DNA of 50,049 bases, taken from a virus (taxonomy: Duplodnaviria > Caudoviricetes). How positions within the stretch are numbered: the stretch's first letter is position 1; each line of letters starts with the position of its first letter. This document shows, one piece after another, positions 1,171-49,800 of the stretch. The notes beneath the pieces are model-generated. The model did not search any database. It saw nothing but the letters and a program-made list of their open reading frames with translations, and was not told the DNA's origin. The stretch lies in IMG/VR virus record IMGVR_UViG_3300045912_000109, positions 1 to 50,049 of that record. The stretch is one strand, 5' to 3'. A program made the position numbers and the translations under genes.

Positions 1171-1208
1171 GTTGACGAAACGCATACTATCGGAAACGAT
1201 AGTGCTCG

Positions 1209-1442
1209 ATGAGCAACTACAGACGACCACGTTCCGAAAGCAAAATCGAAGAATCAAACGAGTTTGCCGAAATTCACAAAGAACTTTTGAAAGCGGCAGT
1301 CGCGGCCACATTCCCGGCAGAGCCGTTTCCCACAAAAGAGCAACACGATCGGTATTGCACGAACATCGTGGGGGTGACAGAAGTGATTACGGCAAAGTTT
1401 ATGCAGCGGCAGAAGGCGCGTAGAACGGTTGACACAGAGTAG
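1209..1442 (+). CDS. Hypothetical protein
   Basis: 77-aa ATG ORF filling the gap between terminator and next promoter. Confidence 0.6.
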   Translation: MSNYRRPRSESKIEESNEFAEIHKELLKAAVAATFPAEPFPTKEQHDRYCTNIVGVTEVITAKFMQRQKARRTVDTE

Positions 1443-1457
1443 CAAGTGTGCTACAAC
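1429..1457 (+). promoter_or_regulatory. Promoter with operator GTAGCA-N4-TGCTAC (1439-1454)
   Basis: TTGACA-17 nt-TACAAC with TG extension; the palindrome lies in the spacer and overlaps the -10. Confidence 0.7.
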
Positions 1458-1501
1458 TTGTGGACGCTGGTAATGGTGCCAGCGCAACCCACAAACAACC
1501 G

Positions 1502-2401
1502 ATGAAGTTCTCAAACAAATTCAATCTGCCCGGCCCTATGTTCCGGGCACTATCTTTTAACGGCTACCGTCCCGGAGATTCCGGCGGGATGCCATACTTG
1601 TCTGTCACTCAACTGATCTCTCCCCCAAGAAAAGTGATTCTGGGGGAGCGTCATTCCGATAAAATTACGGAAGATGTTTCAGATCGGATTTGGTCCCTCT
1701 TAGGCCAATCCGTGCACTCTATACTGGAGGCGGCAGAGGATGAATCCAGCATATCCGAAGAGCGTCTTTACATGGACATCGACGGATACCGCATTGGCGG
1801 GATGATTGATCTTTACGAAACAACCGGAGTGCTCTGTGACTTCAAAGTGACATCCGTATGGAGTGTCATCATGGGGAGTCACGATGAGTGGGAGCAACAG
1901 CTTAACCTCAATGCCGGGCTTTACAGACATGCCGGGTTTGAGGTTAACAAGGTTGAGATCATCGCTATTCTTCGGGACTGGCAGGAGAGAAAGGCAGAAG
2001 TTGACCCCAACTATCCGCAGTGCGGGTTTCAGGTCATTGAGTTTCCTTTGTGGACGCAAGAGCAGGTAATAGAGTTTGCGCGTGAGCGCATCAAGCTCTT
2101 CAAAGAAGCGGCGGGGAAGCCGGATCATCTGCTTCCTCTTTGTTCGCCGGAAGAACGCTGGCGGCGTGGAGACTCATACGCCGTCAAGAAGGCCGGTAAC
2201 AAAAAAGCCACGAAGGTTTTCGATACCGAGGAAGAGGCTAAGGCGTGCGCCTTTGCCCTGACGAAAGAAGCGAACGGGAAAACAACCTACGAAGTTGAGT
2301 TTCGTCCGGGGCAAGACTTGCGCTGCTTGCGCTACTGTGAAGTGGCGCAGTTCTGTTCATACGGCAGAAATCTCCAGCAAAAAATCGAAGAAATTGAGTA
2401 A
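1502..2401 (+). CDS. Cas4-like / PD-(D/E)XK exonuclease
   Basis: GQSVHSILE, EERL, GMIDL, DFKVT, QQLNLNA and C-terminal RCLRYCEVAQFC cysteine cluster; adjacent to an SSB-like gene. Confidence 0.8.
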   Translation: MKFSNKFNLPGPMFRALSFNGYRPGDSGGMPYLSVTQLISPPRKVILGERHSDKITEDVSDRIWSLLGQSVHSILEAAEDESSISEERLYMDIDGYRIGGMIDLYETTGVLCDFKVTSVWSVIMGSHDEWEQQLNLNAGLYRHAGFEVNKVEIIAILRDWQERKAEVDPNYPQCGFQVIEFPLWTQEQVIEFARERIKLFKEAAGKPDHLLPLCSPEERWRRGDSYAVKKAGNKKATKVFDTEEEAKACAFALTKEANGKTTYEVEFRPGQDLRCLRYCEVAQFCSYGRNLQQKIEEIE

Positions 2402-2408
2402 TCAACAC

Positions 2409-2436
2409 TTGATATAAGAAGCAAATCTGCTACAAG
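2409..2436 (+). promoter_or_regulatory. Promoter with operator variant GAAGCA-AATC-TGCTAC (2418-2433)
   Basis: TTGATA-16 nt-TACAAG, same layout as the promoter at 1429. Confidence 0.55.
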
Positions 2437-2475
2437 CAAAATCTCAACCCACAACCCACAACCCACAAACAAAAA

Positions 2476-3381
2476 ATGAGCAAACAACTATTCCCTGTAG
2501 GAGAAGCCTTCGGATGGTCCCCGGACGATCCGATTACAGAGGTCAGCGGTAAGATCAAGTCCCTGTATGACCCGCAAGAATACGATGGAGCCAATGGCCC
2601 CTTCACAATCCAGAACGGAGTCCTGACGACAGAGCACGGAGACATAAAGCTCGTCTTGTTCTCCAACACCCTGCCGAAAACGGCTCGTGGCCGTAACGTG
2701 ACGATCAAGCTGGGGAAGGACAAGAAAAATAAACTCGGAGGCGTAACCTACGAGATCAGCGAATACTTCTCGAAGAAAAAAAACGAGGATGTTCAAGAGG
2801 AGATCATAAAGGTCAACGGGCTTGCCGTGATTTCTTACGAAGGGGCACAGCCAAAACCAGCGGAAAGCAAACCAGCGGAAGATAAGCCGAATCCTCGCAA
2901 CAAGCTGGTGCAGGAATCCACTATCGCATACGATAGCGATCCAGTGGCCGACATGGAGCTTCTCATCAATCTTCACTGGCGAATTGACCAAGCGGTGAAG
3001 ATCAAATACAAAGATGTGAATGAAGAGACCCGCCGATGCTACGTCAACAGCATTTTCATACAAGCTGACAAATGCGGGATCGTGAATAGGTTTATCGCAT
3101 CCGCATCAGTGAAGCAGGCTCCGGCTAAACCTCAAGAGCAGGCAGAAGAAGCCAAGGAAACGGATGCAGGCTTCGAGCGAGAGCCATATATTTGGGAGTC
3201 TTCCGTAATTCCTTCGGGGACGCTGGCAGGAAAGCGTCTTGGGGATGTTGAACCCGAGGACATCATTCGGATGCACAAGTTCTGTGTGCAGAGAGGGAGT
3301 AAAACCCTCTTTTCGCAGCACTTGGCGCAGGCGGTGAAAGACCTGCATCTTGATCTGGAGGATGATGACTTCCCCCTGTGA
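2476..3381 (+). CDS. ssDNA-binding / recombination protein (OB-fold-like N-terminus)
   Basis: Beta-rich N-terminus, acidic C-terminal tail EDDDFPL typical of SSBs, position after the exonuclease. Confidence 0.6.
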   Translation: MSKQLFPVGEAFGWSPDDPITEVSGKIKSLYDPQEYDGANGPFTIQNGVLTTEHGDIKLVLFSNTLPKTARGRNVTIKLGKDKKNKLGGVTYEISEYFSKKKNEDVQEEIIKVNGLAVISYEGAQPKPAESKPAEDKPNPRNKLVQESTIAYDSDPVADMELLINLHWRIDQAVKIKYKDVNEETRRCYVNSIFIQADKCGIVNRFIASASVKQAPAKPQEQAEEAKETDAGFEREPYIWESSVIPSGTLAGKRLGDVEPEDIIRMHKFCVQRGSKTLFSQHLAQAVKDLHLDLEDDDFPL

Positions 3382-3604
3382 AGTTTTGGAGGAGGCGAGG
3401 AGGCTGATTAAAAAGCTGGGCATAACGCATGACCAGTTTGCCGCTTCTTTGACGCTTCCCAAAAAACCCCACCGCGTTACCGTCGCAAGATGGCTTAACA
3501 CGAGCCGACCTAACTGGCACTGTCCGAGTGGGCAGGCTATTGTGGCGGTAATGCAGTGGATACAACAACAAAAAACCGCAAACAAACCACAAACAATAAA
3601 ATGA
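3362..3604 (+). CDS. Cro/XRE-like helix-turn-helix protein
   Basis: LGITHDQFAASL...RVTVARWLN pattern, ~80 aa. Confidence 0.7.
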   Translation: MMTSPCEVLEEARRLIKKLGITHDQFAASLTLPKKPHRVTVARWLNTSRPNWHCPSGQAIVAVMQWIQQQKTANKPQTIK

Positions 3605-4623
3605 GCAAAACAACCAAAGTCACTGGCCTCTTCGTTAAGAGAGGAGCAAAAGAAGAAATTGCAAAGCGTTCGGAGTATGCCGACTGGAAAGCCGGGAAGC
3701 TCACGAAAGAACTCAAAGCGCAATTCACAAAAACCCAAGTGTCGCAACTCTTGGCGATGGTGGAGCGCGATGAAGCCCTCGACGAAGAGAACCCTGATGA
3801 GTTCTTCAAAGCCTACGAGAGCATTAAAGCTGACTTGGCTCGTGCGGCAGAGCACTTTGAAGCCGAAGCTCTGGCAGAAGCGGAGGCGAAAGCCAAGGCC
3901 GAGGCCGAAAAGCAGGCGAAGAAGGGCAAAGAGTTGGCCCTTGTTGAGTCCGTCAAAGAAATCCAATTCGGAGAGGCGTATGCCAAGTTCACGAAGAAGT
4001 TTGATCTTGGCGAAAACATGAACCAGTGTGTTCCAAGGGGCAAAGTCACCGAGGAAGATTTGGTGGGTGCGTTGGCCTTGGGCTTTGGTCTGGAGAACAT
4101 GAGCCAGTGGGTCATTGGAGACATCGTTTGCGCTCTTGAGAACATGGGTTACGAGAACGTGGTTATCGCAGTCTGCGAACGCTTCAAGAAGGCGTATCCT
4201 ACTGTGTCCGGCTACGCTCGTGTCAGCCGCCATGTTCCCGTTGAGAAGCGGGATTCTTCTATCCCGTTCACGGTCTACCGGGAAATTGCCAATGCCCGGT
4301 TCAGCGAGAGCGATGACAAGAACCTGCAGACCATGCACAAACTCATTGACCGTGCTGTCAGCGAGGGCTGGGGGGCAGGCGATGCTCGCTCGCATGTTGA
4401 GGCCGAGCGCGGGGTGAAGAAAGACGACAAAAAGCCTGGATTGAGCTTGTTTGTCGTGAGCCTCGATAACCCGGTGACTTCGTATTTTACTTCGGAAGTT
4501 CCGAAATACAGCGAAAGCACTCTGATCGTTGACCTCAAAGCCAAGAAGTTCTTGGAAAAGAAGGGCAACAAAACTGAGTGGTCTGAGTTCTTCTCTGACG
4601 AGTCTGAGAAATCCTCGTCCTGA
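3601..4623 (+). CDS. Putative DNA-binding protein with LmbU-like domain
   Basis: QWVIGD...YPTVSGYARVSRHVPVEKRDSSIPFTVYREIA...AVSEGW resembles the LmbU-type pattern; N-terminal coiled coil. Confidence 0.55.
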   Translation: MSKTTKVTGLFVKRGAKEEIAKRSEYADWKAGKLTKELKAQFTKTQVSQLLAMVERDEALDEENPDEFFKAYESIKADLARAAEHFEAEALAEAEAKAKAEAEKQAKKGKELALVESVKEIQFGEAYAKFTKKFDLGENMNQCVPRGKVTEEDLVGALALGFGLENMSQWVIGDIVCALENMGYENVVIAVCERFKKAYPTVSGYARVSRHVPVEKRDSSIPFTVYREIANARFSESDDKNLQTMHKLIDRAVSEGWGAGDARSHVEAERGVKKDDKKPGLSLFVVSLDNPVTSYFTSEVPKYSESTLIVDLKAKKFLEKKGNKTEWSEFFSDESEKSSS

Positions 4624-4637
4624 CGGATTGGGCCAAC

Positions 4638-4675
4638 AAAAAACCCACCCCGCAATTAAGCAGGGTGGGTTTTTC
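4638..4675. terminator. Bidirectional intrinsic terminator
   Basis: AAAAAACCCACCC...GGGTGGGTTTTT between convergent genes. Confidence 0.85.
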
Positions 4676-4682
4676 TGTTTGG

Positions 4683-6329
4683 TTATTGTTCGGTCGTGAC
4701 GGGGGAGACGGTGATTGTAGGATCGACGTTTCCGTCCATCAGCAAATCGATTCTCTTGAGTTTTTCATCAAGAGCAGCGCAGATAGCCTCTTCAATTCCA
4801 ACTCCCGCCGCATAGACGATATACTGGAACGAGGGAGACTTTCCTCCTTGCCGATGAACTCTTCCCAATACCTGCTTGAGGTCCATAGCGGACTCACAAG
4901 GGGAGATAAGGGAGTGGCGAGGATGATTGCCGTTGAGGTCTTGAAGGTTGATGCCTTCTTTACACGCTTGGGTAATACCAACGATGCAGCGGATGTCGTC
5001 CCGCTGAAAGGCGTCGATGAAACCTCGGCGTTCCTCTGGCTTTTGTGAGCCAACGATGAACCCGCATTTCCCTATTTTCTTCGTAATCGTATCGACCACG
5101 AATTGCAGGGACTCACGAAAGTTCATTGCGATGAACACGGAGTTGCCTTCTTCGATGAGATCAAGCGCAATATCCGCGATGCCGGGAGCTTTGTGAAGCT
5201 CGATGGCGCGGCGCGTCTTGATTCTCTCCGCAAGTATTGCTCCCGCACGGTCTGCGGCAGGGATTGACTCGTAAATCTCGTTGACTCTCTGTTCGAGTTC
5301 TTCGTATTCCGAGGCAATCTTTTTGCCGTTCTCCATGTCGAATGCCTTTGCGTGAATAGTGGTCTCTGGAAACGCATCCCCCAAGTCCTGAACGCGAAGG
5401 CGCGTTCCATACTCGGGGAATATGTGACTGTGAATCCGCTTTAGTGCGGACTGCGATCCGGAGAAAAACAGCCCGAACTTACCCTCTTTGACTCCGTGAG
5501 CTTTGAGGAACTGGAAGTATGTTCGCCCTCCTCTGTGGAGATTGCACGCTCTTCCAATCTCTGCGAAGTTCATGGGAGTCTCCGCTATCGTAGCCGATAG
5601 TCCCATAAAGGGAACGTGCTGGTCGATAGCAGCCCTAATGAGCAGGCTGTTCAGGGTTCCCATCGTTTTTGCTCGATGGATTTCATCGAAGATGACGATG
5701 GTGTTTTCTGGAATGTGCCACTTGAAACCGCGAACAGCCTTTGAGCGAGGATTTGCCTTCTCCTCGGTCTGCTGGCCGAACTCGGTTTTACCGAGCTTCA
5801 TCCATTCCCACCCATAGACGCCGACGACATCGACACCGACGGCGTTAGCCGCCCGATGCCAATCTGTGCAAACAGATTTAGGGCAGACGACGAGAACCTC
5901 TTTACCAAGCTCCCGTGCGATGAACAGAGAGATGTAAGTCTTTCCTACTCCGGTTGAGTGACCGAGGATATGGAAGTTGTGTTTCTGCATTGAGCGAACG
6001 CCGTATTGAACAGAAGTGATTTGATACTCAAGAACCATGTCTGGATACTTGAGTGGAACCAACTCGTGCTCGATGGACTTCACTTCTTCTTTGCGGGTTT
6101 CGGTGAAGACCCCGGCGGTCGATGACCAGTGATCGCATTGCCACTGGCCTTTATACTTTGAAACACGGACTCCGATTTCACGAAGTGCCTCTTTGTTTTC
6201 GCGGTAAAACTTCCAGAAATCCTCAGAGAGATCGAAGGATTTGCGAATCCATCTGACTCCTCCAGAAGTGTTCACTTGCATGGCTTGTCCGAAGACAACG
6301 ATTTCTTCCAACTGTTGTAGTAGTGTCAT
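4683..6329 (-). CDS. Superfamily 2 (SNF2-like) helicase/ATPase
   Basis: Walker A STGVGKT, VVCPKS, DEIH, LSAT, EGINL, QVLGRVHRQG. Confidence 0.9.
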   Translation of the reverse strand: MTLLQQLEEIVVFGQAMQVNTSGGVRWIRKSFDLSEDFWKFYRENKEALREIGVRVSKYKGQWQCDHWSSTAGVFTETRKEEVKSIEHELVPLKYPDMVLEYQITSVQYGVRSMQKHNFHILGHSTGVGKTYISLFIARELGKEVLVVCPKSVCTDWHRAANAVGVDVVGVYGWEWMKLGKTEFGQQTEEKANPRSKAVRGFKWHIPENTIVIFDEIHRAKTMGTLNSLLIRAAIDQHVPFMGLSATIAETPMNFAEIGRACNLHRGGRTYFQFLKAHGVKEGKFGLFFSGSQSALKRIHSHIFPEYGTRLRVQDLGDAFPETTIHAKAFDMENGKKIASEYEELEQRVNEIYESIPAADRAGAILAERIKTRRAIELHKAPGIADIALDLIEEGNSVFIAMNFRESLQFVVDTITKKIGKCGFIVGSQKPEERRGFIDAFQRDDIRCIVGITQACKEGINLQDLNGNHPRHSLISPCESAMDLKQVLGRVHRQGGKSPSFQYIVYAAGVGIEEAICAALDEKLKRIDLLMDGNVDPTITVSPVTTEQ

Positions 6330-6383
6330 GTTTGGTTTTTGATTTACGCAAGCGGAATTGCTTGCGTTCTGCTGATAGAACAG

Positions 6384-6434
6384 CAGACTTCTTCCCCCCA
6401 CTATCGTTTCCGATAGCGAGGGGAAGCGTGTCTG
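6384..6434. repeat. Intergenic ~50-bp hairpin unit, copy 1
   Basis: CAGAC..CTTCCCC..CTATCG-TTTC-CGATAG..GGGGAAG..GTGTCTG. Confidence 0.85.
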
Positions 6435-6437
6435 ATG

Positions 6438-7193
6438 TTACGACTGGAGCACTGTTGGAACAGAGGTAAGATGCTGGAGAGCTTCCGCATCTTTGACTTC
6501 TTTCTTGTGCCATTCGATAATCGCACGGGCGTCATCCAGAAGGCCGGATTTTTCGTGGTCCCCGTAAAATCCCCACACAGATGAGTCTCTTACCTCTTCG
6601 CCTGTTGGGGAAATTATTGAGACGATGCCATAGACATCGCCCCAAGCCCAACTGCAATAGAGTTCGTATGCGCTTTTGCAGGCTTCTTCTCCACCGCCAT
6701 CTCGCAAGCCAACTTCTTTGGCCCACTGCGGGGTTGCGAACGCCATGACCAAAGCGTAGTCTCCTTGGCAATGACCATTGTAAGTTCCATAATAACATGG
6801 AACATTAGCGATTTTGCAAAGCCATTTTACCATATCGAAGTAATCCTCTGCGTTGCTGTATCTTGTTGGCTTTGGAGCCTGTTCGCTACACAGACTACCA
6901 AAGGCGTCCCTTACTGATTCGCTGTATCGGAAACGATAGTCAGCGAACTCCTTAAGGGAGCAATTAAGATTTTTGATGAGATTGACACGTTTGCCACGTG
7001 CGAACTGCTCATCAGGAATCATTCCGACAAGATCCCAGATGTCCGGGACATCACCGTAAGTGATAAAACTCCGGTCACGGTAATTAAAAACCATAAGCGG
7101 AGGATTGCAGTCCCAATCCTCGAAAGGATTGGCTGGATAATCATCTAGGGCAACGACTACTTTGTAGCCGTCAATTTCGATTGTTTCTTTCAT
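6438..7193 (-). CDS. Hypothetical phage protein (putative early gene)
   Basis: Long ORF with DDYPANPFEDWD, WAWGDVYG and SVWGFYG motifs; A/C-rich leader before MKETIE. Confidence 0.8.
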   Translation of the reverse strand: MKETIEIDGYKVVVALDDYPANPFEDWDCNPPLMVFNYRDRSFITYGDVPDIWDLVGMIPDEQFARGKRVNLIKNLNCSLKEFADYRFRYSESVRDAFGSLCSEQAPKPTRYSNAEDYFDMVKWLCKIANVPCYYGTYNGHCQGDYALVMAFATPQWAKEVGLRDGGGEEACKSAYELYCSWAWGDVYGIVSIISPTGEEVRDSSVWGFYGDHEKSGLLDDARAIIEWHKKEVKDAEALQHLTSVPTVLQS

Positions 7194-7243
7194 GTGTTTG
7201 GTTTTGTTCACTCGCCCTGAATGAGCGAGCGTCTGAGTTTTTA

Positions 7244-7300
7244 AGTCAGACTGCCGCCCCCCACTATCGTAACCGATAGTGAGAAGCGGTGTGTCTGACT
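7244..7300. repeat. Intergenic hairpin unit, copy 2
   Basis: AGTCAGAC-TGCCGC..CACTATCG-TAAC-CGATAGTG..GCGGT-GT-GTCTGACT. Confidence 0.85.
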
Positions 7301-7748
7301 ACTCGTTGGCTGCCTTTTGCCACGCTTCTTCTTCGGTAGAGAAGGGGCCGATTGCTTTTTCATCTTCCAAGCATCCGGGCAAGCAGTGCGAGTAATACCA
7401 GCCCGTCAGCTTTTCGATGACCTTATCTTTGCCGAGGTAATAGACCTCGACGTTGGCAAGTTTATCGACGAGTTCTTCGTATTCTTCTTTGGCCGATGGG
7501 TCGAAGATGTCGTCCCCAAGACAAAGATAATCTTCATCTTTGACGAGACCATCCTCGTAATCGACAATTCCGGTTCGATACCATGTTGGGTCCATCTCGC
7601 GGAGAACGCTTGATGGAGTCATGTGCTCGAAAGGGCCGCCGACTTCTTTGAATGAGTAGGTTTCATCCAAAGAGTCGCAAAACAATTCTTCCACGTTAAC
7701 GGGAGAATGATTCGAGCGAATAATTTCTTCGATGATTTTTTCTTTCAT
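7299..7748 (-). CDS. Acidic hypothetical protein
   Basis: 149 aa, very D/E-rich; PSSVLREMDP and GWYY...PGCL...GPFSTEEEA motifs. Confidence 0.8.
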   Translation of the reverse strand: MKEKIIEEIIRSNHSPVNVEELFCDSLDETYSFKEVGGPFEHMTPSSVLREMDPTWYRTGIVDYEDGLVKDEDYLCLGDDIFDPSAKEEYEELVDKLANVEVYYLGKDKVIEKLTGWYYSHCLPGCLEDEKAIGPFSTEEEAWQKAANE

Positions 7749-7801
7749 TGTGTGTATTTCTATTAAGGTTGGTTTTTGGTTACGGAGTTGCTTAACGCAA
7801 T

Positions 7802-7852
7802 CCGACTACCGCTCCCCACTATCGTAACCGATAGTGAGAAGCGGTGTGTCGA
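7802..7852. repeat. Intergenic hairpin unit, copy 3
   Basis: Shares 37 identical bp (CCCCACTATCGTAACCGATAGTGAGAAGCGGTGTGTC) with copy 2. Confidence 0.85.
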
Positions 7853-7853
7853 A

Positions 7854-8309
7854 TCACTCTGGTTTTGCTCCTATCTCGATTGCTTTTTTAATGAGTTCAG
7901 GCTCATGGATTGGATGAATCCAAGAAGCCCTTTCGCCGAGAGCGTATCTGACAAAGCCGCCGCGCTGCATGAACTCACGTTCCCTTTCGGGAAATTGAAA
8001 GGCTAGGTTCTTCCAAGCCTTCCAGTTTAGCTTTTCGGCAATCAATGGGAAGATTTCCGAAAAGAAGAACTTGGAGTTTGTTTCCAGCCTTTTGGCCATG
8101 CGGGAGCGCATTATTGCGCGTCCTCGTTTCGGGTCTTTCCCGAAACTCACTTGCCCCATGCGGTAAATATCGGGTGCTTTTGGCAGCCCGATATTAAGCT
8201 CGGGAACAAGGAAATGCTCGGGGTCATCTTCTCTTTCTTCCCAAACTTTGAAGTCAAAGTTGGCCCCATTGAACAGAGCCATAGCTTGTTTTTTGTATTG
8301 TTTTGTCAT
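7854..8309 (-). CDS. Hypothetical protein
   Basis: 151-aa ORF bounded by hairpin units, with an A/C-rich leader. Confidence 0.75.
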   Translation of the reverse strand: MTKQYKKQAMALFNGANFDFKVWEEREDDPEHFLVPELNIGLPKAPDIYRMGQVSFGKDPKRGRAIMRSRMAKRLETNSKFFFSEIFPLIAEKLNWKAWKNLAFQFPEREREFMQRGGFVRYALGERASWIHPIHEPELIKKAIEIGAKPE

Positions 8310-8347
8310 AATTTTGGTTTGTTGGTTTTCTGAATGGTTAATTCCAA

Positions 8348-8400
8348 TCAGACTTCCGCCCTCTACTATCGTTTCCGACAGTAAAGGGCGGCGTGTCTAA
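8348..8400. repeat. Intergenic hairpin unit, copy 4
   Basis: TCAGAC-TTCCGCCCT-CTACTATCG-TTTC-CGACAGTA-AAGGGCGG-CGTGTCTAA. Confidence 0.8.
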
Positions 8401-8524
8401 CGGGTTTCGGCGATGATGTATGCCGCGGTTATTAGTAATGTGATTGCGAAAATAGCCAGAGCCAGCATAACTGGCTCTGTGCTTTTCCGCCGATTGCGGG
8501 GGGCTTGAGGATTGCGGAATGCGC

Positions 8525-9382
8525 TCACAACCAGCCCTCCTGAGCGGCGAACCGCTCGACTTCCTTGCGCTCGAATTTGTGGCATCCGATTGTCACGCTA
8601 TCGGAACCGATAGCGCAAAGCTCGAATGGTCCGACATTGTGAGTTTCGACATCACGAACCCACTCTTTGCCTTCATCCCACATGCGGTTGATAAACATGA
8701 AGGAACGCTTGGCGTCCTCATATTTGACTTCCGCTCCATGGGAAGTCTGAACGACAATCGAATTGTGGCGATGAATGCGCCGAAGCAGAGGCGGAATTTT
8801 CATAAGGTATCTGTTCGGGTGAAAGCTATCATCAGAAAAGAATCTCTTAACGCTTTTCTCGATGCTTTCTTTTTCCTTTGATTTCTTTTTCTCAGCCATG
8901 CTTCGCCGTTTTTCGGCCAGCTTTTGGAGCACGGATCGTGTTTCCTCATTGGCTAGAGGATTCTCCAGCCCGTAGAAGGCGCAAAGCTCTTCAATCTCTC
9001 GTGAGATGGCATGAGCTTTGAAGATTTGACGCGCACTCGTTCGAGAACGCTTTACCGCTTCGACAGATTCGTTAAAATCTGCGACACGGGCGCGGAGAAT
9101 CTCTTGCGGGGAAGGATTCATTCGCAGTTCTGGAGCATAGAACACTGGCACCCCAAAAGGAATAGAGCGTCTGGCAAAATTGATATGCTTTGCCGTAGTT
9201 GGCCCCCACTTATCCTTTGTGAAGAGAGCGGCGCGGTTCCCACGCTCGTTCATAACGAAACGAGCGATCGGAAAATGCCGACCATAGGAGTAGATCGTAG
9301 TTCCTTCAAAGAAGAAGTTGCTCCCTTTGCCATAATTTTTATTTTGTGATGCCCACAAATGGGCCACTTGCATGTTATTCAT
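8525..9382 (-). CDS. Hypothetical phage protein (putative early gene)
   Basis: VAHLWA...TIYSYGRHFPIA...TTAKH motifs. Confidence 0.8.
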   Translation of the reverse strand: MNNMQVAHLWASQNKNYGKGSNFFFEGTTIYSYGRHFPIARFVMNERGNRAALFTKDKWGPTTAKHINFARRSIPFGVPVFYAPELRMNPSPQEILRARVADFNESVEAVKRSRTSARQIFKAHAISREIEELCAFYGLENPLANEETRSVLQKLAEKRRSMAEKKKSKEKESIEKSVKRFFSDDSFHPNRYLMKIPPLLRRIHRHNSIVVQTSHGAEVKYEDAKRSFMFINRMWDEGKEWVRDVETHNVGPFELCAIGSDSVTIGCHKFERKEVERFAAQEGWL

Positions 9383-9611
9383 TTTTTTGGTTCTTTCTTG
9401 GTTTGTTGGTTTTTGACGGCTCTGCATTTACCACGGGCTTGCCACCGTTCCACTATCGTAACCGATAGTGAAGCTGCATTACCCGAGCCACGAGCGAAAC
9501 GAATCTCGCAAGCGGCCCGGAAAACCAAACCATAACCAAACCATAAACTGACTTTTCAAAGAACAACGTGGTAAGCATGAAAAGAATAGGACTTTTCTCG
9601 ACCACAGAAAA

Positions 9612-9640
9612 AGTGTAGCAAAAATGCTACTTTATGTCAA
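9612..9640 (-). promoter_or_regulatory. Leftward promoter with operator GTAGCA-AAAA-TGCTAC (9615-9630)
   Basis: Minus strand TTGACA-17 nt-TACACT, heading the 9.4-4.7 kb leftward gene run. Confidence 0.75.
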
Positions 9641-9697
9641 GCGGTTTGAAGCACTTTTCTCTTGTGTCCCGCTATCGTATCCGATAGTATTTTCATC

Positions 9698-10651: not shown

Positions 10652-10658
10652 AGACACA

Positions 10659-10699
10659 AAAAAAGACCCGGCAGCTTACCGCCACCGGGCCTCTTTTGC
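10659..10699. terminator. Bidirectional terminator
   Basis: A-run, CCCGG...CCGGG stem, CTCTTTT between convergent genes. Confidence 0.6.
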
Positions 10700-10706
10700 T
10701 TCTGGT

Positions 10707-12114: not shown

Positions 12115-12259
12115 TGATCCCTACACGCGCCGGAGTTCCGCGCTTCGGGAACCTAGGCCAACCACAGCCTAGGTAGTTTCATTCTCGCCTATCCTGCGGA
12201 AATGTCAACAAAATACATGCCCGAACATATCAATTTTCCACTATCGGAGACGATAGCAA

Positions 12260-12867: not shown

Positions 12868-12875
12868 GCAATGGC

Positions 12876-41841: not shown

Positions 41842-43797
41842 ATGAGCATCTTTCGCGCATCTCCATCTGATTTTGATCGTTTCCCGGAAGCGGCAAGCAT
41901 TGCTGCAAACACATCGAACTTCCTTGTCAACAACTTGGCAAACACCGGGAAGGCGATTGGTCAGGCATTGGCTATTGATGCGGCGCGAGCGCAGGCGGCA
42001 GAAATCCTGCCGCAGCTTAATGAGAGCTATCTGGCGGGGATGGAGCAGATCAACAACGGGAACATCGGGGTAGGGCTTGGGATGATTTTTGATACCGCGA
42101 GTTATGCTCAGACAAATCCGCTTCTTTCGCGCATTGCTCGTGATGCTCAGATTAGCGCGAGTCAAGTAGCGCAAGCGAAGCTCGAAACGATCCTCACCGA
42201 AAACATGAGGCTCAACCTCATGCGGCAAGGGGCAGACATTGAGGTTGAGACTGACCGGAGGAAGTTGCAAAACCAACAAGACTTCAAGGGGGATGAGCCG
42301 CAAAAACCGAGTGTTATTGATCTGTATCGTCAATTAAAGGGCGGGCAACCGATTCAGGGAGCCTCCGGCGCGAGCACAGGAGGCCAGCCACAAGGTTTTT
42401 CCGATTTGGGATGGGAAACGGTCCCCGGAATACGACAAAACGATTCTACTGACAATTTTTGGGCTGAAAACGACGACATTCCGCCAAACGACTACGCTGG
42501 ACCTCTCCCAACAAACTCAGGCCCGCCCGATTCTATCGGAAACGATAGGCAAATTATTTTTACAGACATCGTTGAAAGCTCTAGGAGCAAAGAAGAGGCG
42601 AAAAAAATAATACAAGACAACGTGAATTTAGGGTTTCTTACTCCAGAAGAGGGGCAAGCATTCAGTGATCAACTGGAAAATCTTGCTCAAGGAGATAGTG
42701 ACTTTGAAGAACTTAGGCAGCAAGCAATTCAAGCCGCAAGCGAGAACACTGTGGCGTGGGGAGAACAGGCGGTGAAGGATCAGAGTCAGCAGATAGATAG
42801 AAGCATCCAGCAAAACCCCGATGCTCGATTGGCAGTTCAGCAGGCAATCGCATCGGGAAATCTTATCCAAATGAAGATTGCTCCCGACTTGCAAGCATTT
42901 CTTCCGTTTGAGGAAATCTTAGTTCCGGCAGAAAGGGGAAGTCTAGAATTTACACTGACACTTCAAGGAAACGACGGAAGCCTTCAAATTAAAGATAAGC
43001 CCAACGAAGGGGGCATGGACATTACTGGAATGGCTAACGAAGTTATTGGCGCGGCGTCCCGCTTAAACAGCATTGCCGGGTTATCCGATTTCGCAAGGCG
43101 TGTTGGAGGTAATATCTATTACCGCGAGACGCCCGGCGGCTCTGACAGCAGAGTCCTCACGGTATATGGAAGAGACTCCAAAACCGGAGAGGCCATCGTT
43201 TTTTCCGATACTACGGTTCAGGGCAAAAAGTCCTTGGCAACTCCTGTTCAACTGCCGCCCGAAGTCAGAAAGGACATCGACACAATCAATGGGTTCAAAG
43301 CACTCATTCAAACTCAATCCACGGGTATTGCGGCAGAGCCAGCAGAAATCCCCTATCCAGAGCAAACTTCTAGTGGAGAAGAGCGCACGGAGGGAACGAT
43401 GAGGCAAAGATTGATGCAACAGGTCACGGCAGATATACCCAATGCACCGAAAGAATTTCAAGATTACGTTGTAGAGGTTGGGGTTAAAAAGGGCGCGGAA
43501 GCGGCGAGTATGCTCGTTACTCAGTTTGAAACAAACCCCAAGGGAACTCTTCTTGAATTTGCAAAAACCATCAGAGAGCAAGCAAGATTTGCATTTCCGT
43601 TTTTAGAGCTTCCAGAAAGACCAAAAACCGTCGAAGAGCCTCCGTTCCCTACATTCACTCCAAAACAACAATCCATTCAGGATCAGGCTTTAGACGTAAT
43701 TAAATCTTGGATGAAAAGAAATCTTACTCCGCAAGGAAGGTATGACGCCGCGATTGAAAGAGCAGAAAAGATTGAAAAACTTGCAGAATCCATGTAG
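41842..43797 (+). CDS. Internal virion / DNA ejection protein
   Basis: 651 aa, Q/E-rich, between the small and giant ejection genes. Confidence 0.65.
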   Translation: MSIFRASPSDFDRFPEAASIAANTSNFLVNNLANTGKAIGQALAIDAARAQAAEILPQLNESYLAGMEQINNGNIGVGLGMIFDTASYAQTNPLLSRIARDAQISASQVAQAKLETILTENMRLNLMRQGADIEVETDRRKLQNQQDFKGDEPQKPSVIDLYRQLKGGQPIQGASGASTGGQPQGFSDLGWETVPGIRQNDSTDNFWAENDDIPPNDYAGPLPTNSGPPDSIGNDRQIIFTDIVESSRSKEEAKKIIQDNVNLGFLTPEEGQAFSDQLENLAQGDSDFEELRQQAIQAASENTVAWGEQAVKDQSQQIDRSIQQNPDARLAVQQAIASGNLIQMKIAPDLQAFLPFEEILVPAERGSLEFTLTLQGNDGSLQIKDKPNEGGMDITGMANEVIGAASRLNSIAGLSDFARRVGGNIYYRETPGGSDSRVLTVYGRDSKTGEAIVFSDTTVQGKKSLATPVQLPPEVRKDIDTINGFKALIQTQSTGIAAEPAEIPYPEQTSSGEERTEGTMRQRLMQQVTADIPNAPKEFQDYVVEVGVKKGAEAASMLVTQFETNPKGTLLEFAKTIREQARFAFPFLELPERPKTVEEPPFPTFTPKQQSIQDQALDVIKSWMKRNLTPQGRYDAAIERAEKIEKLAESM

Positions 43798-43808: not shown

Positions 43809-46800
43809 ATGGAAACTTTGCTGCAAGAAACAGATGTCGATATAACGAGGTTCCCCAACCTCAGTAAGACCGACGAAGAAATGGATGAGTATGATCGCAT
43901 CCAGCAAAGGATTGCGAGATACAACGAAGCTCTTGCGGTAAGAAGTGGCTACAAAGACGAGGGGAAGCCGGAGGGATATTCTGATGAGGCATGGACGGCA
44001 CTTCGGCGCGGGGGTGAGCAGCTAAAGATGATGCTCTATGCCGGGGCTGCGGCTGCTGGAGAAATAACTGGAGCAAAGAGCCTTCAAGACTGGGGAGAGA
44101 CAGAAGCTCTTCGTAAGATCGATGAGATCAACAAGCGGTTTGCCCCGTCGGTAAATAGCTTCATGGACGTTCCGGGGGACAGTGTTGGGCAGACATTCGA
44201 CAACGCATTTCGTTATCTCCTGAGCGCAGCAGGAGAGACAATTCCCACAATGATACCTTCCCTGATTGCTGGGGCAGGTGCTGGGGCAATCGCGGGACAA
44301 GTTGGGAAAAAGGCTCTTGTGGCAAAAGCGACCGAACAGCTAACGAGAAACCTTACTGCAAGATACGGCCAAAGAAAGGCGGGGGAGATGATTGCCAGAC
44401 ATGCGCTTAACATAAAGCGCATTGCGGATGCAGCGAATGCGGGGAATGTTCGTGCGGCCCAAATGATGGGGGCATTTGGGGTGAATTACCCGTTGGCGGT
44501 TGGAGAGGTTTATCAAGGGATGATGGATAGCGAGGAGGGAGCATCAGGCGCACTGGCGTTTGGTTTCGGAGTTCCATTCGCTGCACTTGACACGCTTCCA
44601 GAAGTGATGGCTATCGACAAACTGATTGGGCCGGGAGCCGGGAGAAGATTCGCCAAAACGTTTGCAGATCGAGCAAAGATTGCCGGGATTACAGATTTGC
44701 AACTTGCCCTATCAGAGGCCGGAACAGAGGTAGCTCAAGAAGTTATCGCAAAAGCAGCAGCGATGATAAATGATCCGTCGAAGAAGTTCACGGATCAGGA
44801 TTTCGTTGAGCTTGCAGACGTTGCGATTAGAACCTTTATCGGAATGGGATCAACTTTTGGTGCGGCGGCGGGGCTTCGCCAAGCGGTTATTGCTCCAAGC
44901 TCGGACCCAAGAGTAAATCAAAAACAGTCAGAAATTGAGCGGAAGGCGGCAGAGATGTCTACGCCTTTTGGCGCAGCAGGGATCATCAATGAAGAACGAC
45001 AGCGAGGAACTGGCAGACCCGAGGCTGAAATTATTGCCGATCAAGCCCGGCTCGAAAACGAAGAGGCTCAACTCCGCAGGGAATTGGAAACCGCGCAAGA
45101 AGAAGAAGCTGTCAGGATTAGGGCCAGCATCGAAGAGATTGAAAGAAGGAAAGCTGACAATGCTGCCGAGCTTACAAGACTACGTAATCAAGACGGCGGA
45201 AGGTTTGGAGAGGCAGAGGGCAGTCAGCTACAAGAAGATGGAGCGGAGGCTGAAAGAGGCGCGGAAGAAGGAGCGTCACCAGAGTTTGCTGCAAAGCTGC
45301 AAGCAGTCACATCCCGATTCATGGCTGGGAGAACTCGCTCGCCGGATGAGAGGCAGAGAGGCATATTACAAGAGATCGCTCGCAAAGAAATTGCCCGCGA
45401 TAAAATCGCGGAGCGGCTACGTGCCTTATCAGAGCGGCCCGAACAGGCATCACCCGCAGAAGATGCCGAATTTAGTGCGCTCGCCAAAACCGAAAAAGCA
45501 TTGGGAACGGACATCGCAGAGCTTACTGCTTCGCTTCGTATCGACCCTAGTGAAACGAAGCCCATCCGTCGTAGCAAGTCTCCCGCCGTCCCTGCGTATC
45601 TGCGAGACAATCCCTTCTCCCGCCCTCGTTACGAAGTTAAGAAGAGCGAGATCGATGCAATCATTGACGGAGCACGAGAGAGCGATCCTAGAGATGCACA
45701 AACAAAAGAATGGCTCAAAGAGGCTATTGACCAATACATTCCCTTGATCGACGAGCTTGGAGTCAAGGTGGAATATGGTAAGACTGGCCGAGCCGGATAC
45801 AACTATCAGACCAACGCAATTCTACTTCCAAGCCCGGAGGAATACAGAAAAGCAGCTTCATACGGCAAGGATGACTTGTCGAAGATCATCGAGGAAGAAG
45901 CCATTCACGCGGCCCAATTCAAAGCCTTGCGGGATGAGTTTGATGCTTCCAAGGACACAAACTTTGGATCATTTCTCAAGAAGAAAATCGACAGGCTTGT
46001 TGAGGACATTGAGCGTGCTGACAGCGACATCCTCAAGAAAATCGCTCGTGGCTATATTGGGCCGAGGGCCAAGGTAACTGACAACACATCGAGGACTCAA
46101 CTTTACATTGAGTTTGAGAGGGCAGTTATTCAGAGGATGCGGACTGGCCAGCTTACCGAAGATTTGCGAGCGGCTAAGAAAGAGGCGCAAGCAGGGTCGG
46201 CGGCGGCGAGAACATTTATTGATTCTGTGCTTGAGGCTCTTGAGCGATACCGGGCAGCTATTGTTCGGTTTATTAACCGTGCAACATCGCCGAAGCGCAT
46301 TCAAGAACGGCTTAAGCAAGTCAACGCAATTCTTGATGAGTTTGGGATCATCAATCGTCCGACTCAGTTAGATTCCACTATCGTATCCGATACCAATGAG
46401 AGCAACATTCCGACCGGGCAGAGAGAACTTCAACGTCAAGACCAGCAAGAAGAAGCTGGCGGCACCGCGCAAAACCAGAAAACCCAACAAGAGCAAAGTC
46501 TGCCGCAAGAAGAAGGTCTAGTATCATCAGCGGCGGATGATGGGGGAACCGCAACCACCGCTACGGCGAGAGTTGACCAGCAAGACGCTCGTTTCAGCGA
46601 ACTGACGGCATCTATCACACCGGACACCGACCTTGAAGTGTGGAAAGCCGAGAACCCGGAAGCGTATGCCGAGCTTAAGAAGATGCGGGAGAAGGTGCTT
46701 CGTGAGGCGGGGTATGATGTGGGTCCGGTAATTCATCAGACGAACGCTTCAAATTTCACAGAGTTCGACATTGGTAAGGCTAGAAATACCGGACGTAGCA

Positions 46801-49800
46801 AGGTGGGGTTCTTCTTCACCGATAATCCCGATGTTGAGTATGGCAGGAATACCATTAACGCATTTCTCGAATCCAAGGAACCGCTTACCTTCGACTCTTT
46901 CAATGCTTTTGACGAATGGGCATCACGCAACGAAACATCCTTCGGGGATACGGCGTCTTTGAGGTCTGTCTTGCGTGAAAAAGGTTATGACAGTATAGAG
47001 ATCAAAGGTAAAACCGATGGTTTTGAGCAGACGATCACCGTCGTTCTGGACCCATCCCAAATCAAATCCGCCGAGCCGCTGAACCGCGACGAGAACGGCA
47101 ACTTGATTCCGCCTTCCCAATGGGCTAACCCGGAGAGTGACAGTATTCTCTTCTCTCCTGAGCAACAAACTGAGACCACGCAAGACGAAGCTCTTGCAGA
47201 AATAAATCAAATTGGCACAGACCAGCTTACCAAGTCACTGTTGGGCTTTGCGGAAGAAATGGAAGGGAAGCCGCGTAAGCGAGTATCGCAAGCATCGTGG
47301 GCGTATAAGCTGGGTGCGGCGATCAAATACGACAGTCAGACAAACAAAGAGTCTTTTGAGAAAGCGGCAAACTACATTCGTTCTCGTGGGATTCTTAAAG
47401 TCATGCGAACTTTCGCAAACGACAGATCAAGTATTCCTCAGACGCTCCAAAACATCATCGGCCCGGCTCTAAACGCATACTTCGATACCTTTGCAAGCAT
47501 GGCGCAGGGGCTTGATAGCGTGGCCTCGCTCCCGGCAGACCAGAGGCTTGAATTGCAAAGCGAGATTACTTCGCTCGCTCCAAGGTTAAATGCCTCTGGA
47601 TTCAATAATGCTTCCGAAGCTGGGAGGGCATTGCAGATTCTCAAGAAAACGCAAATCTTCGCAGGAAAGTGGGATCGCATGGCCACTCTTGAAAGAATGC
47701 TTTCTCCTTACATCAAGAAACTTGAGAAATCCACAAGGGCCAACGTCAAAGACTTAGCGGTCAATCTGACGAGGATCGCTGACTTGGCTCAAGAAGAGGT
47801 AATCACGAGAGGGGAGAAGGTAAATGCGGCGATTGAGTTAATAAAACGGGCAACCGCTGACCCGAAGAAGTTTGTGCGCGGCAGCAAGGCATCAATGGCC
47901 AAGAACCGGGCTGCTCTCAAAGAGGCTATTGATCGAATCGTCTTTGAGGCATCGGACGCCATTCATAAGTTCGGAGGAGACGAGCACGCTTATCAGTTAG
48001 CCCGAAAGCTCAAGCACATTATTGCTCCGGTTCGCGGAGGAACTGATCCAGAGAAGAGCGTAGATGCAATGATTGTGAAGGCACTCAATGAAGTTTTCAA
48101 AGAGTCGCTTCGCATGGACCCGACCGGACCCAAGAAAGTCACGAAGACTGACAGTGTTCGCGCCCTCAATCTACTAAAGCAAGCTATCGGAAACGATACT
48201 CTGAAAAACCAGATTCTTGACAATCTAGAAAACCAAATCGCCGCTGGATATGCGAAGGGAAAATCCGACCCGCAGTATATTGCCGACGGCTACCCGCAAG
48301 CGTTTGAAGCTGCTAGGGAGAAGGACTATGCTCGCAGCGTTCTTGAGGGCGCGATGAAAGAGGCCGAGCAAAATCTCAACGTCATCGTGAACAAGCTGAT
48401 TGAGACATCGTGGGGCGCAGGGATGGATTCGATTGGCCAAATCAAAAGCTACTTCCGGGAAAAGCTGGGCGGCATTGCCAGCAAAGAAGTGATCGACAGG
48501 CTTGTGGAAGATGTTGACGCAACGCTGACAAAAAGAGCCATCCGCAGGCTTGAGGAGTTGGCTACATTCACGGTTCGAGTGAAAACTCCAGACGGAGAGA
48601 CCAAGACCATTACGCTTGAGGAATACTACTCCGATCCGGACTTCTACGAGCGGTTAAGTTCTTCTATCGGCGGGGCAAAGCTGATCCGTGGCGCGATGAA
48701 AGACGAAGACGGCATCCGCACGACTCTGAATCAAGTTGTGAAGATGGGGCGCACGCGCAAAGACAAATACGCAAATGCCATTGCGCAAAACATCATTCAA
48801 GAGATGGGCATCCCCGAGGAGTATGCGACAGCAATGCAGAACCTCATCGTAAGCGAGATCAAGTTAGCCGTCAAAGACCGCATGACTCAGAACATCAAGC
48901 GTGAGCTTGACAAGCTGGAGGAGAGCGCGAAGAAAAATGAAAGCTCGCAAGAGGCTCGAAAAACGATGCTTGACAAGCTGATAGAGTATGCTGCCTCTGG
49001 CTACTTGCACGAAGAGAAAATCTACGAGTCAATCCGCAAGGCTCACCCCAAGCTCAAGCTGCCCCCTTGGAGCATTGAGATGGCAGAGAAGATTGAAGCC
49101 CTTGGAGAAATCGCAGACACTTCGACAGGATTTCTGAAAGAGCGCGCTCAATCTGAGATCGTTAAAGAGATCGTTCGTTCTCAACCAATTTCAAAAGAGG
49201 AGATGGTGACTACGTGGTGGTATTACAGCCTTCTCTCTGGTCCGGCAACGACCATCCTGAACTTGGGTTCGTCGCTTCTAAACTCGTTCCTCAACACATT
49301 CTGGCACGCGATACAGAATCCCTCAAAATTCAGAATGACATTTCAGGCATTCATTGAAGGGATTAGGAATCGCGGGATTCCCGAGATGATGTATGCCCTC
49401 AAGACCGGGCTATACTCATCCGACTTGGACGCGAAGTATCCAATCATCTCAATTCTTGAAGCGGCAACGCCGGAGAGCCATCCTACTTTTTACAAAGTCA
49501 CTCGCTTTGGGGATATTCCGATTTTGAAATACACGTCTCCCGTCTATGTATTTCGGATATTGAAAGCCACAGACTTGTTGTTCAAGGGGGCGGCTATGGA
49601 GGCCCGGCTCGCCACCCTTGACGCAAAGATCACGCAAGCACAGAGAGAAGAAGCGCGAGCGCAAGCCATAGAAGAAATTGGCCCTGAGACAAAAGAAAAC
49701 AAGTTGGAGATTGAAAAGAGAACGAATGAGATAATCGACGAGAAAATTGCTGCGGTTAACTCATACGCATACCGTTCAGCCGTGCAAGACTCACGGCGAG

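Follow-up and report, generated by a model that had tools for sequence, protein, structure and literature searches.

The stretch of DNA analysed here (the window) is the whole of IMG/VR virus record IMGVR_UViG_3300045912_000109, 50,049 bases of a tailed phage (Caudoviricetes). Its ends overlap by 127 bp, by which the window is a circularly assembled phage genome of ~49.9 kb. Our subject is a short palindrome, TATCG-N4-CGATA, dispersed over this genome; a duplex sequence carrying it is CTATCGGAAACGATAG. A first-pass annotation of the same DNA had called the palindrome genome-wide, and this is literally true, since the window is a whole virus record with overlapping ends. The window holds 29 exact copies, compared with a mean of 0.01 and a maximum of 1 in 100 dinucleotide shuffles, and exactly two one-mismatch copies, at 8367 and 11578, where 0.55 are expected. 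Motif counting confirms the annotation's ~31 copies in number and place, as well as their excess over chance. The 16-bp form CTATCG-N4-CGATAG has 17 copies, and the form TTATCG..CGATAA occurs at 19409, 22065, and 35837. As the annotation had also listed, the four central bases are constrained: GAAA is found eight times, TTTC, TAAC, and TATC four times each, GAAC and GAGA twice each, and TCTC once, with four singletons, and 22 of 29 copies fit the centre K-W-W-M. As far as sequence can tell, the copies form a set of conserved cis-acting sites belonging to a single lineage of uncultivated tailed phages.

Twenty-two of the 29 copies lie inside called open reading frames (ORFs), in frames 1 or 2 and seldom in frame 0, where the gene calls are heuristic (longest ORFs ranked by conservation) and start codons and near-start "in-gene" labels approximate. 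The in-gene copies encode IGND, IVTD, YRIRY, and LSEPIV, in agreement with the differing frames reported earlier. When codons were shuffled synonymously within genes, 200 runs gave a mean of 0.47 in-gene copies and a maximum of 3, compared with the 22 observed; in four relatives, 11–14 copies were observed against 0.5–0.75 after shuffling. The motif is not equally frequent in codon-shuffled controls, a check that the annotation had proposed. Its claim that selection acts on the DNA stands in part: selection acts on nucleotide sequence rather than on protein, with the DNA and RNA levels not separated.

The first site (1188–1201, centre GAAA) lies between the end of a giant ORF (1071) and ORF 1209–1442, just downstream of a promoter-like (1075–1103) and a terminator-like (1133–1164) sequence. 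The next, 2922–2935, falls in a linker (~aa 148–152) of p301, an SSB-like gene (2476–3381, plus strand), and 5586–5599 falls in the SNF2/ResIII helicase gene (4683–6401, minus strand; ~aa 267–270), at the same place as in the related genome G005. Copies are densest at 5.5–13 kb, as had been noted, with 11 of 29 within 5586–12942. Besides the hairpin members described below, this region includes 6925–6938, inside ORF 6438–7211(−); 9673–9686, separated by 11 nt from the downstream ATG (9698) that probably starts p329 (9662–10651, plus strand); 10533–10546, in the C-terminal part of p329 (LSEPIV), with a similar place in G005 and the locus L313; 12242–12255, which is intergenic; and 12929–12942, in a T-rich stretch among small ORFs. 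Further sites lie at 16946–16959 in a small ORF (16880–17128, minus strand), at 17741–17754 in ORF 17330–18085(−), at 19409–19422 in the replication O-like gene (18840–19991; ~aa 190–193), and at 20362–20375 in the DnaB helicase gene (19958–21286), in a linker (~aa 134–138) close to where the relatives' DnaB site stands (aa 136–145). The gene of the large terminase (TerL), a protein only weakly terminase-like, occupies 21961–23862 on the minus strand and contains 22065–22078, in the C-terminal tail (aa 594–597, FIGDDK), and 22768–22781, at ~aa 360. Site 24296–24309 covers codons 7–11 of the portal gene and in relatives stands just upstream of the portal ATG. The remaining sites are 28005–28018 (ORF 26968–28254, AIVTDS), 30112–30125 (intergenic, 23 nt before the ATG at 30149), 34674–34687 (intergenic, 5 nt before the ATG at 34693), 35837–35850 (ORF 35544–36818), 37134–37147 (ORF 36829–38661), 40149–40162 (ORF 39516–40445; YRIRY, frame 0), 42534–42547 (ORF 41842–43797), and two in the giant polyvalent protein of ~2,390 aa, whose ORF runs across the record ends (43809–50049, then 128–1071): 46379–46392, at aa 856 and at the left edge of a segment not shared with the related genome G009, and 48185–48198, at aa 1458 and orthologous in G005 and G009.

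The largest site-free gaps are 12943–16945 and 30126–34673. The first holds two DNA methyltransferase genes (N6/N4; 13177–13914 and 14304–15098) and adjoins the gene of an HU-like protein (16558–16890), all of them missing in five relatives; the second is the G+C-richest part of the window, at 56%. These gaps would fit recently acquired DNA without sites.

Conservation across a lineage and loss in a sister clade

The window terminase has many metagenomic relatives at 40–60% identity, on contigs of 50–60 kb. A search with one distant TerL gave only two remote loci; a TerL alignment of 23 relatives (A1) retrieved 413 viral-contig loci, and among the best 80 of these 413, which our counts cover, the palindrome is present in 80 of 80, with 354 copies in 857 kb. 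Five complete relatives carry 17, 15, 19, 21, and 23 copies, although their G+C content is 43–45% compared with 50% in the window and their proteins are 26–66% identical to those of the window. The sixth, G009 (G+C 54%), has 26, such that all six motif-bearing complete relatives hold 15–26 copies each. Loci encoding a relative of the window protein p355 (3556–4623, plus strand) likewise carry the palindrome in 62 of 62 cases (515 copies in 1.12 Mb; no locus has fewer than 2, and the densest has 20 in 20 kb). Conservation in related phages, which the annotation had suggested examining, is thereby established, with the caveat that sites in related genomes are non-independent observations. One member of the lineage was found in a metagenome-assembled genome labelled Candidatus Woesearchaeota (L194, or G010 contig C3), in which all 20 copies lie on a 51.8-kb phage contig (TerL 50% identical) and none in the other ~750 kb. 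The bacterial-type DnaB and SSB tail of this phage favour a bacterial host, so that the Woesearchaeota binning is probably wrong and the labelled bin probably not the host.

The positions of the sites are conserved as well. A site at offset 1733 from the terminase start is found in all 40 loci listed (window counterpart 1784), and one at offset −426 in most of the 40 (window counterpart −447). In protein alignments, two sites are common to six of six genomes, one at aa 597 in the tail of the terminase and the other at aa 152 in the linker of p301, and some of the genomes have further sites in common: at aa 270 or aa 100 of the SNF2 helicase, aa 66 of a 610-aa virion protein, aa 134–145 of DnaB, and aa 1462 of the giant protein. 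Within the TerL site, read as TTT ATC GGN NNC GAT AAR in 56 distinct sequences, third codon positions are invariant or nearly so (2.0, 2.0, 1.4, 2.0, 2.0, and 1.8 bits, compared with 0.1–1.7 bits in flanking codons), those of TTT, ATC, NNC, and GAT being invariant. Synonymous positions at this in-gene copy are frozen, which answers a further check of the annotation in the affirmative. In-gene sites fall in linkers or tails and encode I-(G/V/A)-x-D or L-S-x-x-I. Of 150 sites in seven genomes, 60 fall between genes, even though the gene calls make 93% of the sequence coding. About 40% of sites fill tiny stop-to-start gaps, and in relatives many fill a minimal gap in which only 2 nt separate the upstream stop from the 16-bp palindrome.

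The search was built so that both arms match exactly, and the relatives inform only flank and centre; with this definition, the core is invariant across phages of 43–55% G+C. Outside the core, the flanking pair is mostly C..G in the window (79% and 69%), whereas relatives have mostly T..A (90% and 97%). The consensus centre of the relatives' sites, K-W-W-M, is itself dyad-symmetric, indicating that the dyad symmetry noted earlier extends into the degenerate centre. In G+C-richer relatives the centre shifts to TTGR, TCGC, and similar sequences, and this drift with G+C content indicates that the centre is only loosely constrained. The lineage-level consensus is (T/C)TATCG-KWWM-CGATA(A/G). One-mismatch sites are few compared with perfect ones (2 vs 29 in the window, 2–11 vs 17–26 in the four motif-bearing relatives examined), and two-mismatch variants that retain pairing show no enrichment (0–3 per genome). 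Seven genomes together have 34 one-mismatch sites, of which 21 break pairing; the others are G.U pairs, 9 on the sense and 4 on the antisense strand. Since perfect sites dominate, compensated variants are not enriched, and most one-mismatch sites break pairing, selection maintains the sequence of both arms and not mere pairing ability.

A sister clade, retrieved with a second terminase alignment (A2), serves as a control. In this clade the palindrome is missing from 72 of 82 loci (19 copies over the 917 kb of the set) and found 1, 0, and 1 times in three complete members, and no other 5+5 palindrome is enriched in the 82 loci. The sister clade has the terminase, portal, capsid, four-Cys protein, and tail genes in common with the window and lacks p301, p355, p329, p121 (17098–17463, minus strand), and the window-type DnaB. 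Correspondingly, the only window proteins common to all six motif-bearing complete relatives and missing in three motif-poor genomes are p301, p355, p329, p121, and DnaB. Because a clade with the same structural genes and another early module lacks the motif, the palindrome is tied to, and inherited with, the early/replication module. The extended motif ACTATCG-N4-CGATAGT, scanned over viral contigs, gave only single, chance-like sites per contig among the 80 matches listed of at least 109. A literature search with the palindrome in five written forms gave no match, a large part of PMC articles lying outside that search.

Long hairpins of the leftward early operon

Within the leftward early operon, hairpins of ~50 nt carry the palindrome at their tip. 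They bridge the preceding stop (GTAA or GTAG) and the following ATG, and their variable middle is enclosed by the conserved outer boxes CAGAC/GTCTG. The window members are 6402, 7265, 7820, and 8367, with weaker ones at 8599, 9454, and 11578. Three class I hairpins on the minus strand carry an exact palindrome at the tip and belong to alignment A7. The hairpin at 6378–6439 (palindrome 6402–6415), just upstream of the helicase gene, has a folding energy of −38.8 kcal/mol on the minus strand and −30.5 on the plus strand (z −7.5); the corresponding values are −40.2 and −33.2 (z −9.5) for 7241–7302 (palindrome 7265–7278), between two leftward genes, and −43.4 and −28.7 (z −9.4) for 7796–7857 (palindrome 7820–7833). 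A fourth class I hairpin on this strand, 8343–8404 (−40.4 vs −25.6), has as its tip the one-mismatch copy 8367–8380, whose mismatch is a minus-strand G.U. Site 8599–8612, in the 3′ part of ORF 8525–9427(−), gives −26.3 on the minus and −19.0 on the plus strand. The minus-strand hairpin 9430–9491 contains a palindrome (9454–9467) 26 nt before the ATG of this ORF, and a promoter-like sequence, 9640–9612(−), lies upstream of it. The other one-mismatch copy, 11578–11591, is inside ORF 11560–11829(−), and its mismatch is a G.U on the sense strand.

Intrinsic terminators combine a G+C-rich hairpin with a U tract, and in this respect the long hairpins at 6402, 7265, and 7820 differ, as no U run follows them. 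Strong U-tract terminators with 12–17 pairs are present elsewhere, at 10697–10659(−), 11792–11761(−), and 1133–1164(+), and the long hairpins are therefore a different thing. Among 45 terminator-like sites listed in 1–20000, one overlaps a palindrome (9671–9688; a 7-pair stem with 3 GC). The first-pass annotation had missed these strand-specific hairpins, together with the stop-to-start placement and the lineage-wide site positions.

Conserved genes of the window and of the related genome G003 have almost no Shine-Dalgarno motifs, and their leaders are C/A-rich, for example with ACCCACAA repeats before 2476, 26968, and 28497. A reading of the site as a promoter was rejected: there is no conserved −35, GATAAW after the site makes an inconsistent −10 by eye, and the site is symmetric. 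As a separate observation, G003 has at ~46570–46620 (L203) a divergent promoter region with another palindrome seen by eye, TATTGAC-N2-GTCAATA, which overlaps TTGACA −35 boxes on both strands; it is classical operator-like and unrelated to the main motif.

Candidate binders and competing explanations

Three candidate binders had been proposed in the first-pass annotation. Its "LmbU-like" protein, p355, holds up; the other two, the "HTH" ORF 3350–3604 and the basic protein 10707–11537, do not, having neither a family match nor relatives in related phages. p355 is encoded in all 7 motif-bearing complete genomes and missing from 3 motif-poor ones. Its helix-turn-helix (HTH) stretch is nearly invariant over 62 loci, as is the site core, whereas the HTH of p329 is variable. 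The AlphaFold 2 model of p355 (pLDDT 80) places an N-terminal beta hairpin plus helices, a long helix, a ParB/KorB/Noc-like HTH domain (~aa 162–287), and a C-terminal beta domain. Foldseek returned Noc (7nfu_B; E 0.26, probability 0.99) as the sole high-probability row. With VIA-align, the domain matched the DNA-binding domains of ParB (ParB-parS, 6s6h_B; Z 7.8, root-mean-square deviation [rmsd] 9.1, 136 aligned), Spo0J (1vz0_A; Z 7.4, rmsd 4.2, 107 aligned, 22% identity), and KorB (KorB-operator, 1r71_A, Z 6.2, rmsd 3.3, 109 aligned; KorB, 8qa8_A, Z 5.6), and its language-model neighbours include ParB-HTH, DUF6192, and DUF3102 clusters (0.88–0.90). A symmetric homodimer is predicted with a score of 0.82 compared with 0.00 for the best control, a level reached by 20 of 30 proteins solved as one-chain pairs and by 1 of 23 with a single-chain structure; agreement of contacts between runs is at least 61%, with a partner pLDDT of at least 76. 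A profile search for p355 homologues found 10 proteins, none with a Pfam family, and profile searches of the PDB returned no informative match for either p355 or p329. Covariation of the p355 helix with site variants was also considered and gave no clean signal, as centres drift with G+C content.

The second candidate, p329, has a confident three-helix HTH in its model and a long coiled coil (small-terminase-like or Myb/LuxR-like); its language-model neighbours carry HTH_50 and Terminase_5, and Foldseek gave only weak Myb/LuxR HTH rows (E > 3). Two more proteins travel with the motif: p121, an HNH nuclease with CxxC..HH..N..CxxCH motifs and a profile match to Cas5-HNH (E 1.5e-5), and p301, which has an OB-type N-terminus by eye and an acidic tail (DDDFPL/DDIPY). 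Other proteins were rejected as the reader of the sites. The HU-like protein and both methyltransferases are missing in the 5 relatives tested, a small four-Cys protein (23885–24274) is also found in motif-poor genomes, and the replication O-like protein has no match in relatives.

The explanation we prefer, with confidence somewhat below even, is that the palindromes are dispersed operators of a phage-encoded dimeric DNA-binding protein, for which p355 is the best candidate. We infer recognition of duplex DNA, the identity of the binder, and the purpose of the sites from the features just described and by analogy with known systems. Each copy would be an operator-like site on double-stranded DNA, bound by a symmetric dimer of a phage HTH protein with one TATCGK half-site per subunit across a loose A/T-rich centre. 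Some 15–29 occupied sites, mostly at cistron junctions and protein linkers, would together make one genome-wide handle, whose role may be transcription roadblock or silencing, or genome compaction, in the manner of KorB OB, Noc, and stoperator sites. In the leftward early operon, the sites would be built out into long sense-strand RNA hairpins bridging stop and start codons. We propose that, because the palindrome also forms a hairpin in the transcript, sites may be kept a few bases from start codons.

Several observations weigh against this explanation. The fold matches of p355 are weak: the VIA-align scores all fall below the safe level of Z 8 and concern a helical domain, for which Raf1, a Rubisco factor, scores as high. 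p355 has no Pfam family and, by Pfam, no N-terminal ParB/Srx CTPase domain, and no ParA was found among the window proteins covered by Pfam scans (part of the ORFs). Moreover, because the early block is inherited together, the phyletic pattern is unable to single out p355. The centre of the G009 sites is the asymmetric TTGR. Most directly, strand-specific hairpin folding is a single-strand property, most simply of early mRNA, and covarying strand-specific hairpins are a trait of single-stranded RNA or DNA and not of a duplex operator, making an RNA-level role a serious rival. Under this alternative, which is possible although we consider it doubtful, a UAUCG-loop-CGAUA stem-loop at cistron junctions would be functional as a single strand, chiefly mRNA, and a phage or host RNA-binding factor or nuclease would use it for translational coupling, mRNA processing, or stability, the DNA palindrome being its template. 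Among distinct elements with a fold of at most −24 kcal/mol, 35 of 37 are more stable on the sense strand, as are 18 of 18 in a separate hand-picked set, by 3–17 kcal/mol. For 25 elements, RNAalifold predicts 22 pairs; compensatory changes are seen in 15 of these, and U.G pairs are frequent. Class I elements reach from stop to ATG, the relatives' short sites fill stop-to-start gaps, and 23 of 31 start-proximal sites in six relatives have 3–8 nt from core to start codon, which suggests an RNA-level role. Both window one-mismatch copies are G.U on the sense strand, the conserved genes are without Shine-Dalgarno motifs, and the hairpins are distinct from the U-tract terminators found elsewhere. 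Sense-strand centres are skewed toward GAAA (31, vs 7 TTTC, or UUUC in the loop), a bias to be read with the non-independence of the sites and an A-rich sense strand. On the other hand, covariation is absent from the five apical pairs, the same in 25 of 25 elements, and compensated variants are not enriched, which is unusual for a purely structural RNA; in the tally over all genomes given above, pair-breaking mismatches outnumber G.U mismatches of either strand. The symmetry of the loop constraint (K..M, W W) is what duplex DNA would give, 60% of sites lie in genes away from start codons, the outer pair is frequently mismatched on the sense strand (C..A 13, G..A 19), and no RNA-binding protein was recognised. 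The duplex operator is favoured by arms that do not vary, a centre that is degenerate and yet symmetric, no enrichment of compensated variants, and the accompanying module with a predicted dimeric ParB-type HTH protein, and an RNA-level role is also possible as a second function of the same element. A joint version of both accounts, which we regard as unlikely, would have the duplex dock a CTPase-less ParB/KorB-like dimer that controls the whole, apparently lytic, phage genome from ~20 fixed positions, the stop/start hairpin replace Shine-Dalgarno initiation by gated coupling, and the palindrome mark the borders at which relatives exchange genes and protein domains.

Exchange also figures in a less probable account still, in which the palindrome would be the target of the HNH nuclease p121 or of the small-terminase-like p329, with nicks or breaks serving packaging, recombination-dependent replication, or cassette exchange between co-infecting relatives. 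p121 travels with the motif, p329 combines an HTH with a coiled coil like small terminases and has sites before and inside its gene, the exonuclease (1448–2401) and SSB-like genes adjoin, and sites number about one per gene in the hypervariable early region. Ends of megablast alignments (at least 85% identity) fall within 20 bp of sites in 8.0% of cases, compared with 1.8% at random, at junctions in 50% with a site and 36% without, and at deep in-gene sites in 8.7% compared with 3.1%; the excess is small and possibly an artefact, since alignments tend to stop at a conserved 16-bp island. The site at aa 856 of the giant protein marks the edge of an ART/kinase domain swap, but the G009 swap edge is ~120 residues from its site and a second site is within shared sequence. 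Second-order selection for evolvability would hardly account for strong synonymous conservation at ~20 places in each genome, and HNH genes beside terminases are common and, as Kala et al. reportedly found in 2014, not sequence-specific. Rated lower again, the sites could copy the binding site of a host nucleoid, division, or replication protein, which would be recruited or titrated. The chromosomal site sets matS, SlmA, and Noc have the same size and symmetry, and a conserved host factor would explain a core that is invariant over phages of 43–55% G+C; yet the sister clade, whose virion genes are the same, has lost the motif along with an early module that is the phage's own, and the cellular bin holding one of these phages, probably not its host, has 0 copies off the phage contig. 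The least probable account, to which we give very little credence, is a selfish repeat similar to repetitive extragenic palindromic (REP) elements or miniature inverted-repeat transposable elements (MITEs), or a by-product of composition or codon use. Early copies do share a ~50-nt repeat with the outer boxes CAGAC/GTCTG, but dinucleotide and codon shuffles exclude composition, and contigs among the matches listed in the extended-motif scan have one site each. REP and MITE repeats are extragenic and their copies non-orthologous, whereas here 60% of sites are in genes, including essential ones, and many are orthologous across deep divergence.

Genome context, parallels, and significance

Beyond the sites themselves, the window has several features of note. 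The giant ORF has an ART-PolyVal domain at aa 974–1089, while its G009 counterpart has a Kinase-PolyVal domain at aa 1058–1153, in a non-homologous segment; this is a domain swap in a polyvalent virion-type protein. N4-type hairpin promoters depend on a virion RNA polymerase that reads hairpins of the template strand; in these giant virion-type proteins, most of whose length is unassigned, only ART-PolyVal or Kinase-PolyVal domains were found, with no PDB sequence match and no polymerase domain. The idea that sites mark cassette borders in polyvalent proteins was set aside, as only 1 of 4 borders fits. The terminase gene is solitary on the minus strand amid plus-strand genes. Its start is 22 bp from a divergent 129-aa gene, and it stands back to back with a 74-aa gene (21736–21960) that converges on its end; the 74-aa product is very basic (pI 11.4), is the best-conserved small protein (63–72% identity in 4 of 5 relatives), and has no Pfam family. 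Some TerL relatives (P0047, P0048, P0071–P0073, P0111) are 770–940 aa long and carry intein or Hint-type Pfam domains, a domain content by which inteins occur in the large terminase of the lineage. A 37-bp stretch of the replication O-like gene (19246–19282) matches, at 97% identity, the gene of replication protein O in 19 lambdoid E. coli phages, which are Shiga toxin (Stx)-converting and related; the genome is otherwise unrelated to them. It is also the sole megablast match of the window among GenBank phages, where no near relative was found. TerL gave no tblastn match in 50,697 GenBank phage records, and a single-protein search with the portal found no relative in viral contigs. Neither a tRNA gene nor, at gathering score, a match to Rfam 15 was found in the window, general Pfam scans of part of its proteins found no ParA or integrase family, and no integrated copy of the phage was found in 185,579 species genomes. 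Public runs holding window positions 21001–31000 comprise 10 rows from 7 studies labelled as hot springs or microbial mat metagenomes, of which two may be the sample that the window came from, and no RNA run is listed among these ten.

Several known systems resemble the palindrome in part. The intercistronic hairpins of phage early operons, for example the RNase III sites of T7, lie on the sense strand and are without U tracts. They share with the long hairpins their length, their place between consecutive early genes, and their strand, and they differ in that they are not known to have an invariant apical sequence or any in-gene or late-operon counterparts. Integron attC sites are strand-specific imperfect palindromes after cassette genes that act as folded single strands. 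Like the elements described here, they have conserved boxes, a covarying middle, and a position after small genes; however, in attC the base alone is conserved, whereas here both tip and base are, sites also lie in core genes, and, unlike in attC systems, no tyrosine recombinase was found among the window proteins scanned.

The closest published parallel is the palindrome of Cluster O mycobacteriophages, a 17-bp TGTTCGG-N3-CCGAACA with >30 copies per genome (PMC4351075). Its authors infer a dimeric binder, call the function unknown, and see indels between repeats. Both repeats have invariant arms, an A/T-rich variable centre, a mix of intergenic, 5′-proximal, and in-gene copies, and similar positions in related genomes, and the Cluster O repeat has no copies in the host. 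The sequence and geometry differ (7-3-7 compared with 5/6-4-5/6 here), making the Cluster O repeat an analogue and not a member. It also comes from five near-identical genomes, in contrast to the hundreds of contigs at ~50% protein identity here, and here the sites are lost in a sister clade and cap strand-specific long hairpins. The stoperators of Cluster A mycobacteriophages number >20 over the genome, many in short intergenic spaces, and are read by a phage HTH protein. They are asymmetric 13-mers read by a monomer, oriented with transcription, in temperate phages (PMC9283540). By analogy they are a plausible model for a roadblock role, being dispersed and enriched in short intergenic spaces as are the sites here (60 of 150 intergenic). 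In contrast to stoperators, the present site is a perfect 5+5 (often 6+6) palindrome with a predicted dimer as candidate binder, and no lysogeny genes were noticed in the window phage. KorB OB sites of plasmid RK2 (PMC11790492), Noc sites, and parS are likewise 13–16-bp palindromes dispersed in and between genes and bound by a dimer with a ParB-type HTH. The OB core TTTAGCGGCTAAA (PMC11790492) differs in sequence from the palindrome, and p355 departs from the ParB family in having no detected CTPase domain and no ParA in the proteins scanned.

Genome-wide palindromic site sets have been noted in phages before, for example in Cluster O, and never explained. The lineage described here amounts to a natural experiment, in which hundreds of diverged genomes keep the same 14-bp core at orthologous places, even at synonymous positions, while a sister clade lacks the core together with one gene module, leaving only four or five candidate genes. 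A direct test of the purpose of the sites would take one or two proteins and a single oligonucleotide, and the motif is a sharp marker by which the lineage can be recognised in metagenomes and bins de-contaminated. If the RNA-level account is true, a sequence-specific hairpin system would organise translation in a phage free of Shine-Dalgarno motifs. If p355 is the reader, long-range control of the ParB/KorB type would extend to phages and to CTPase-less proteins.

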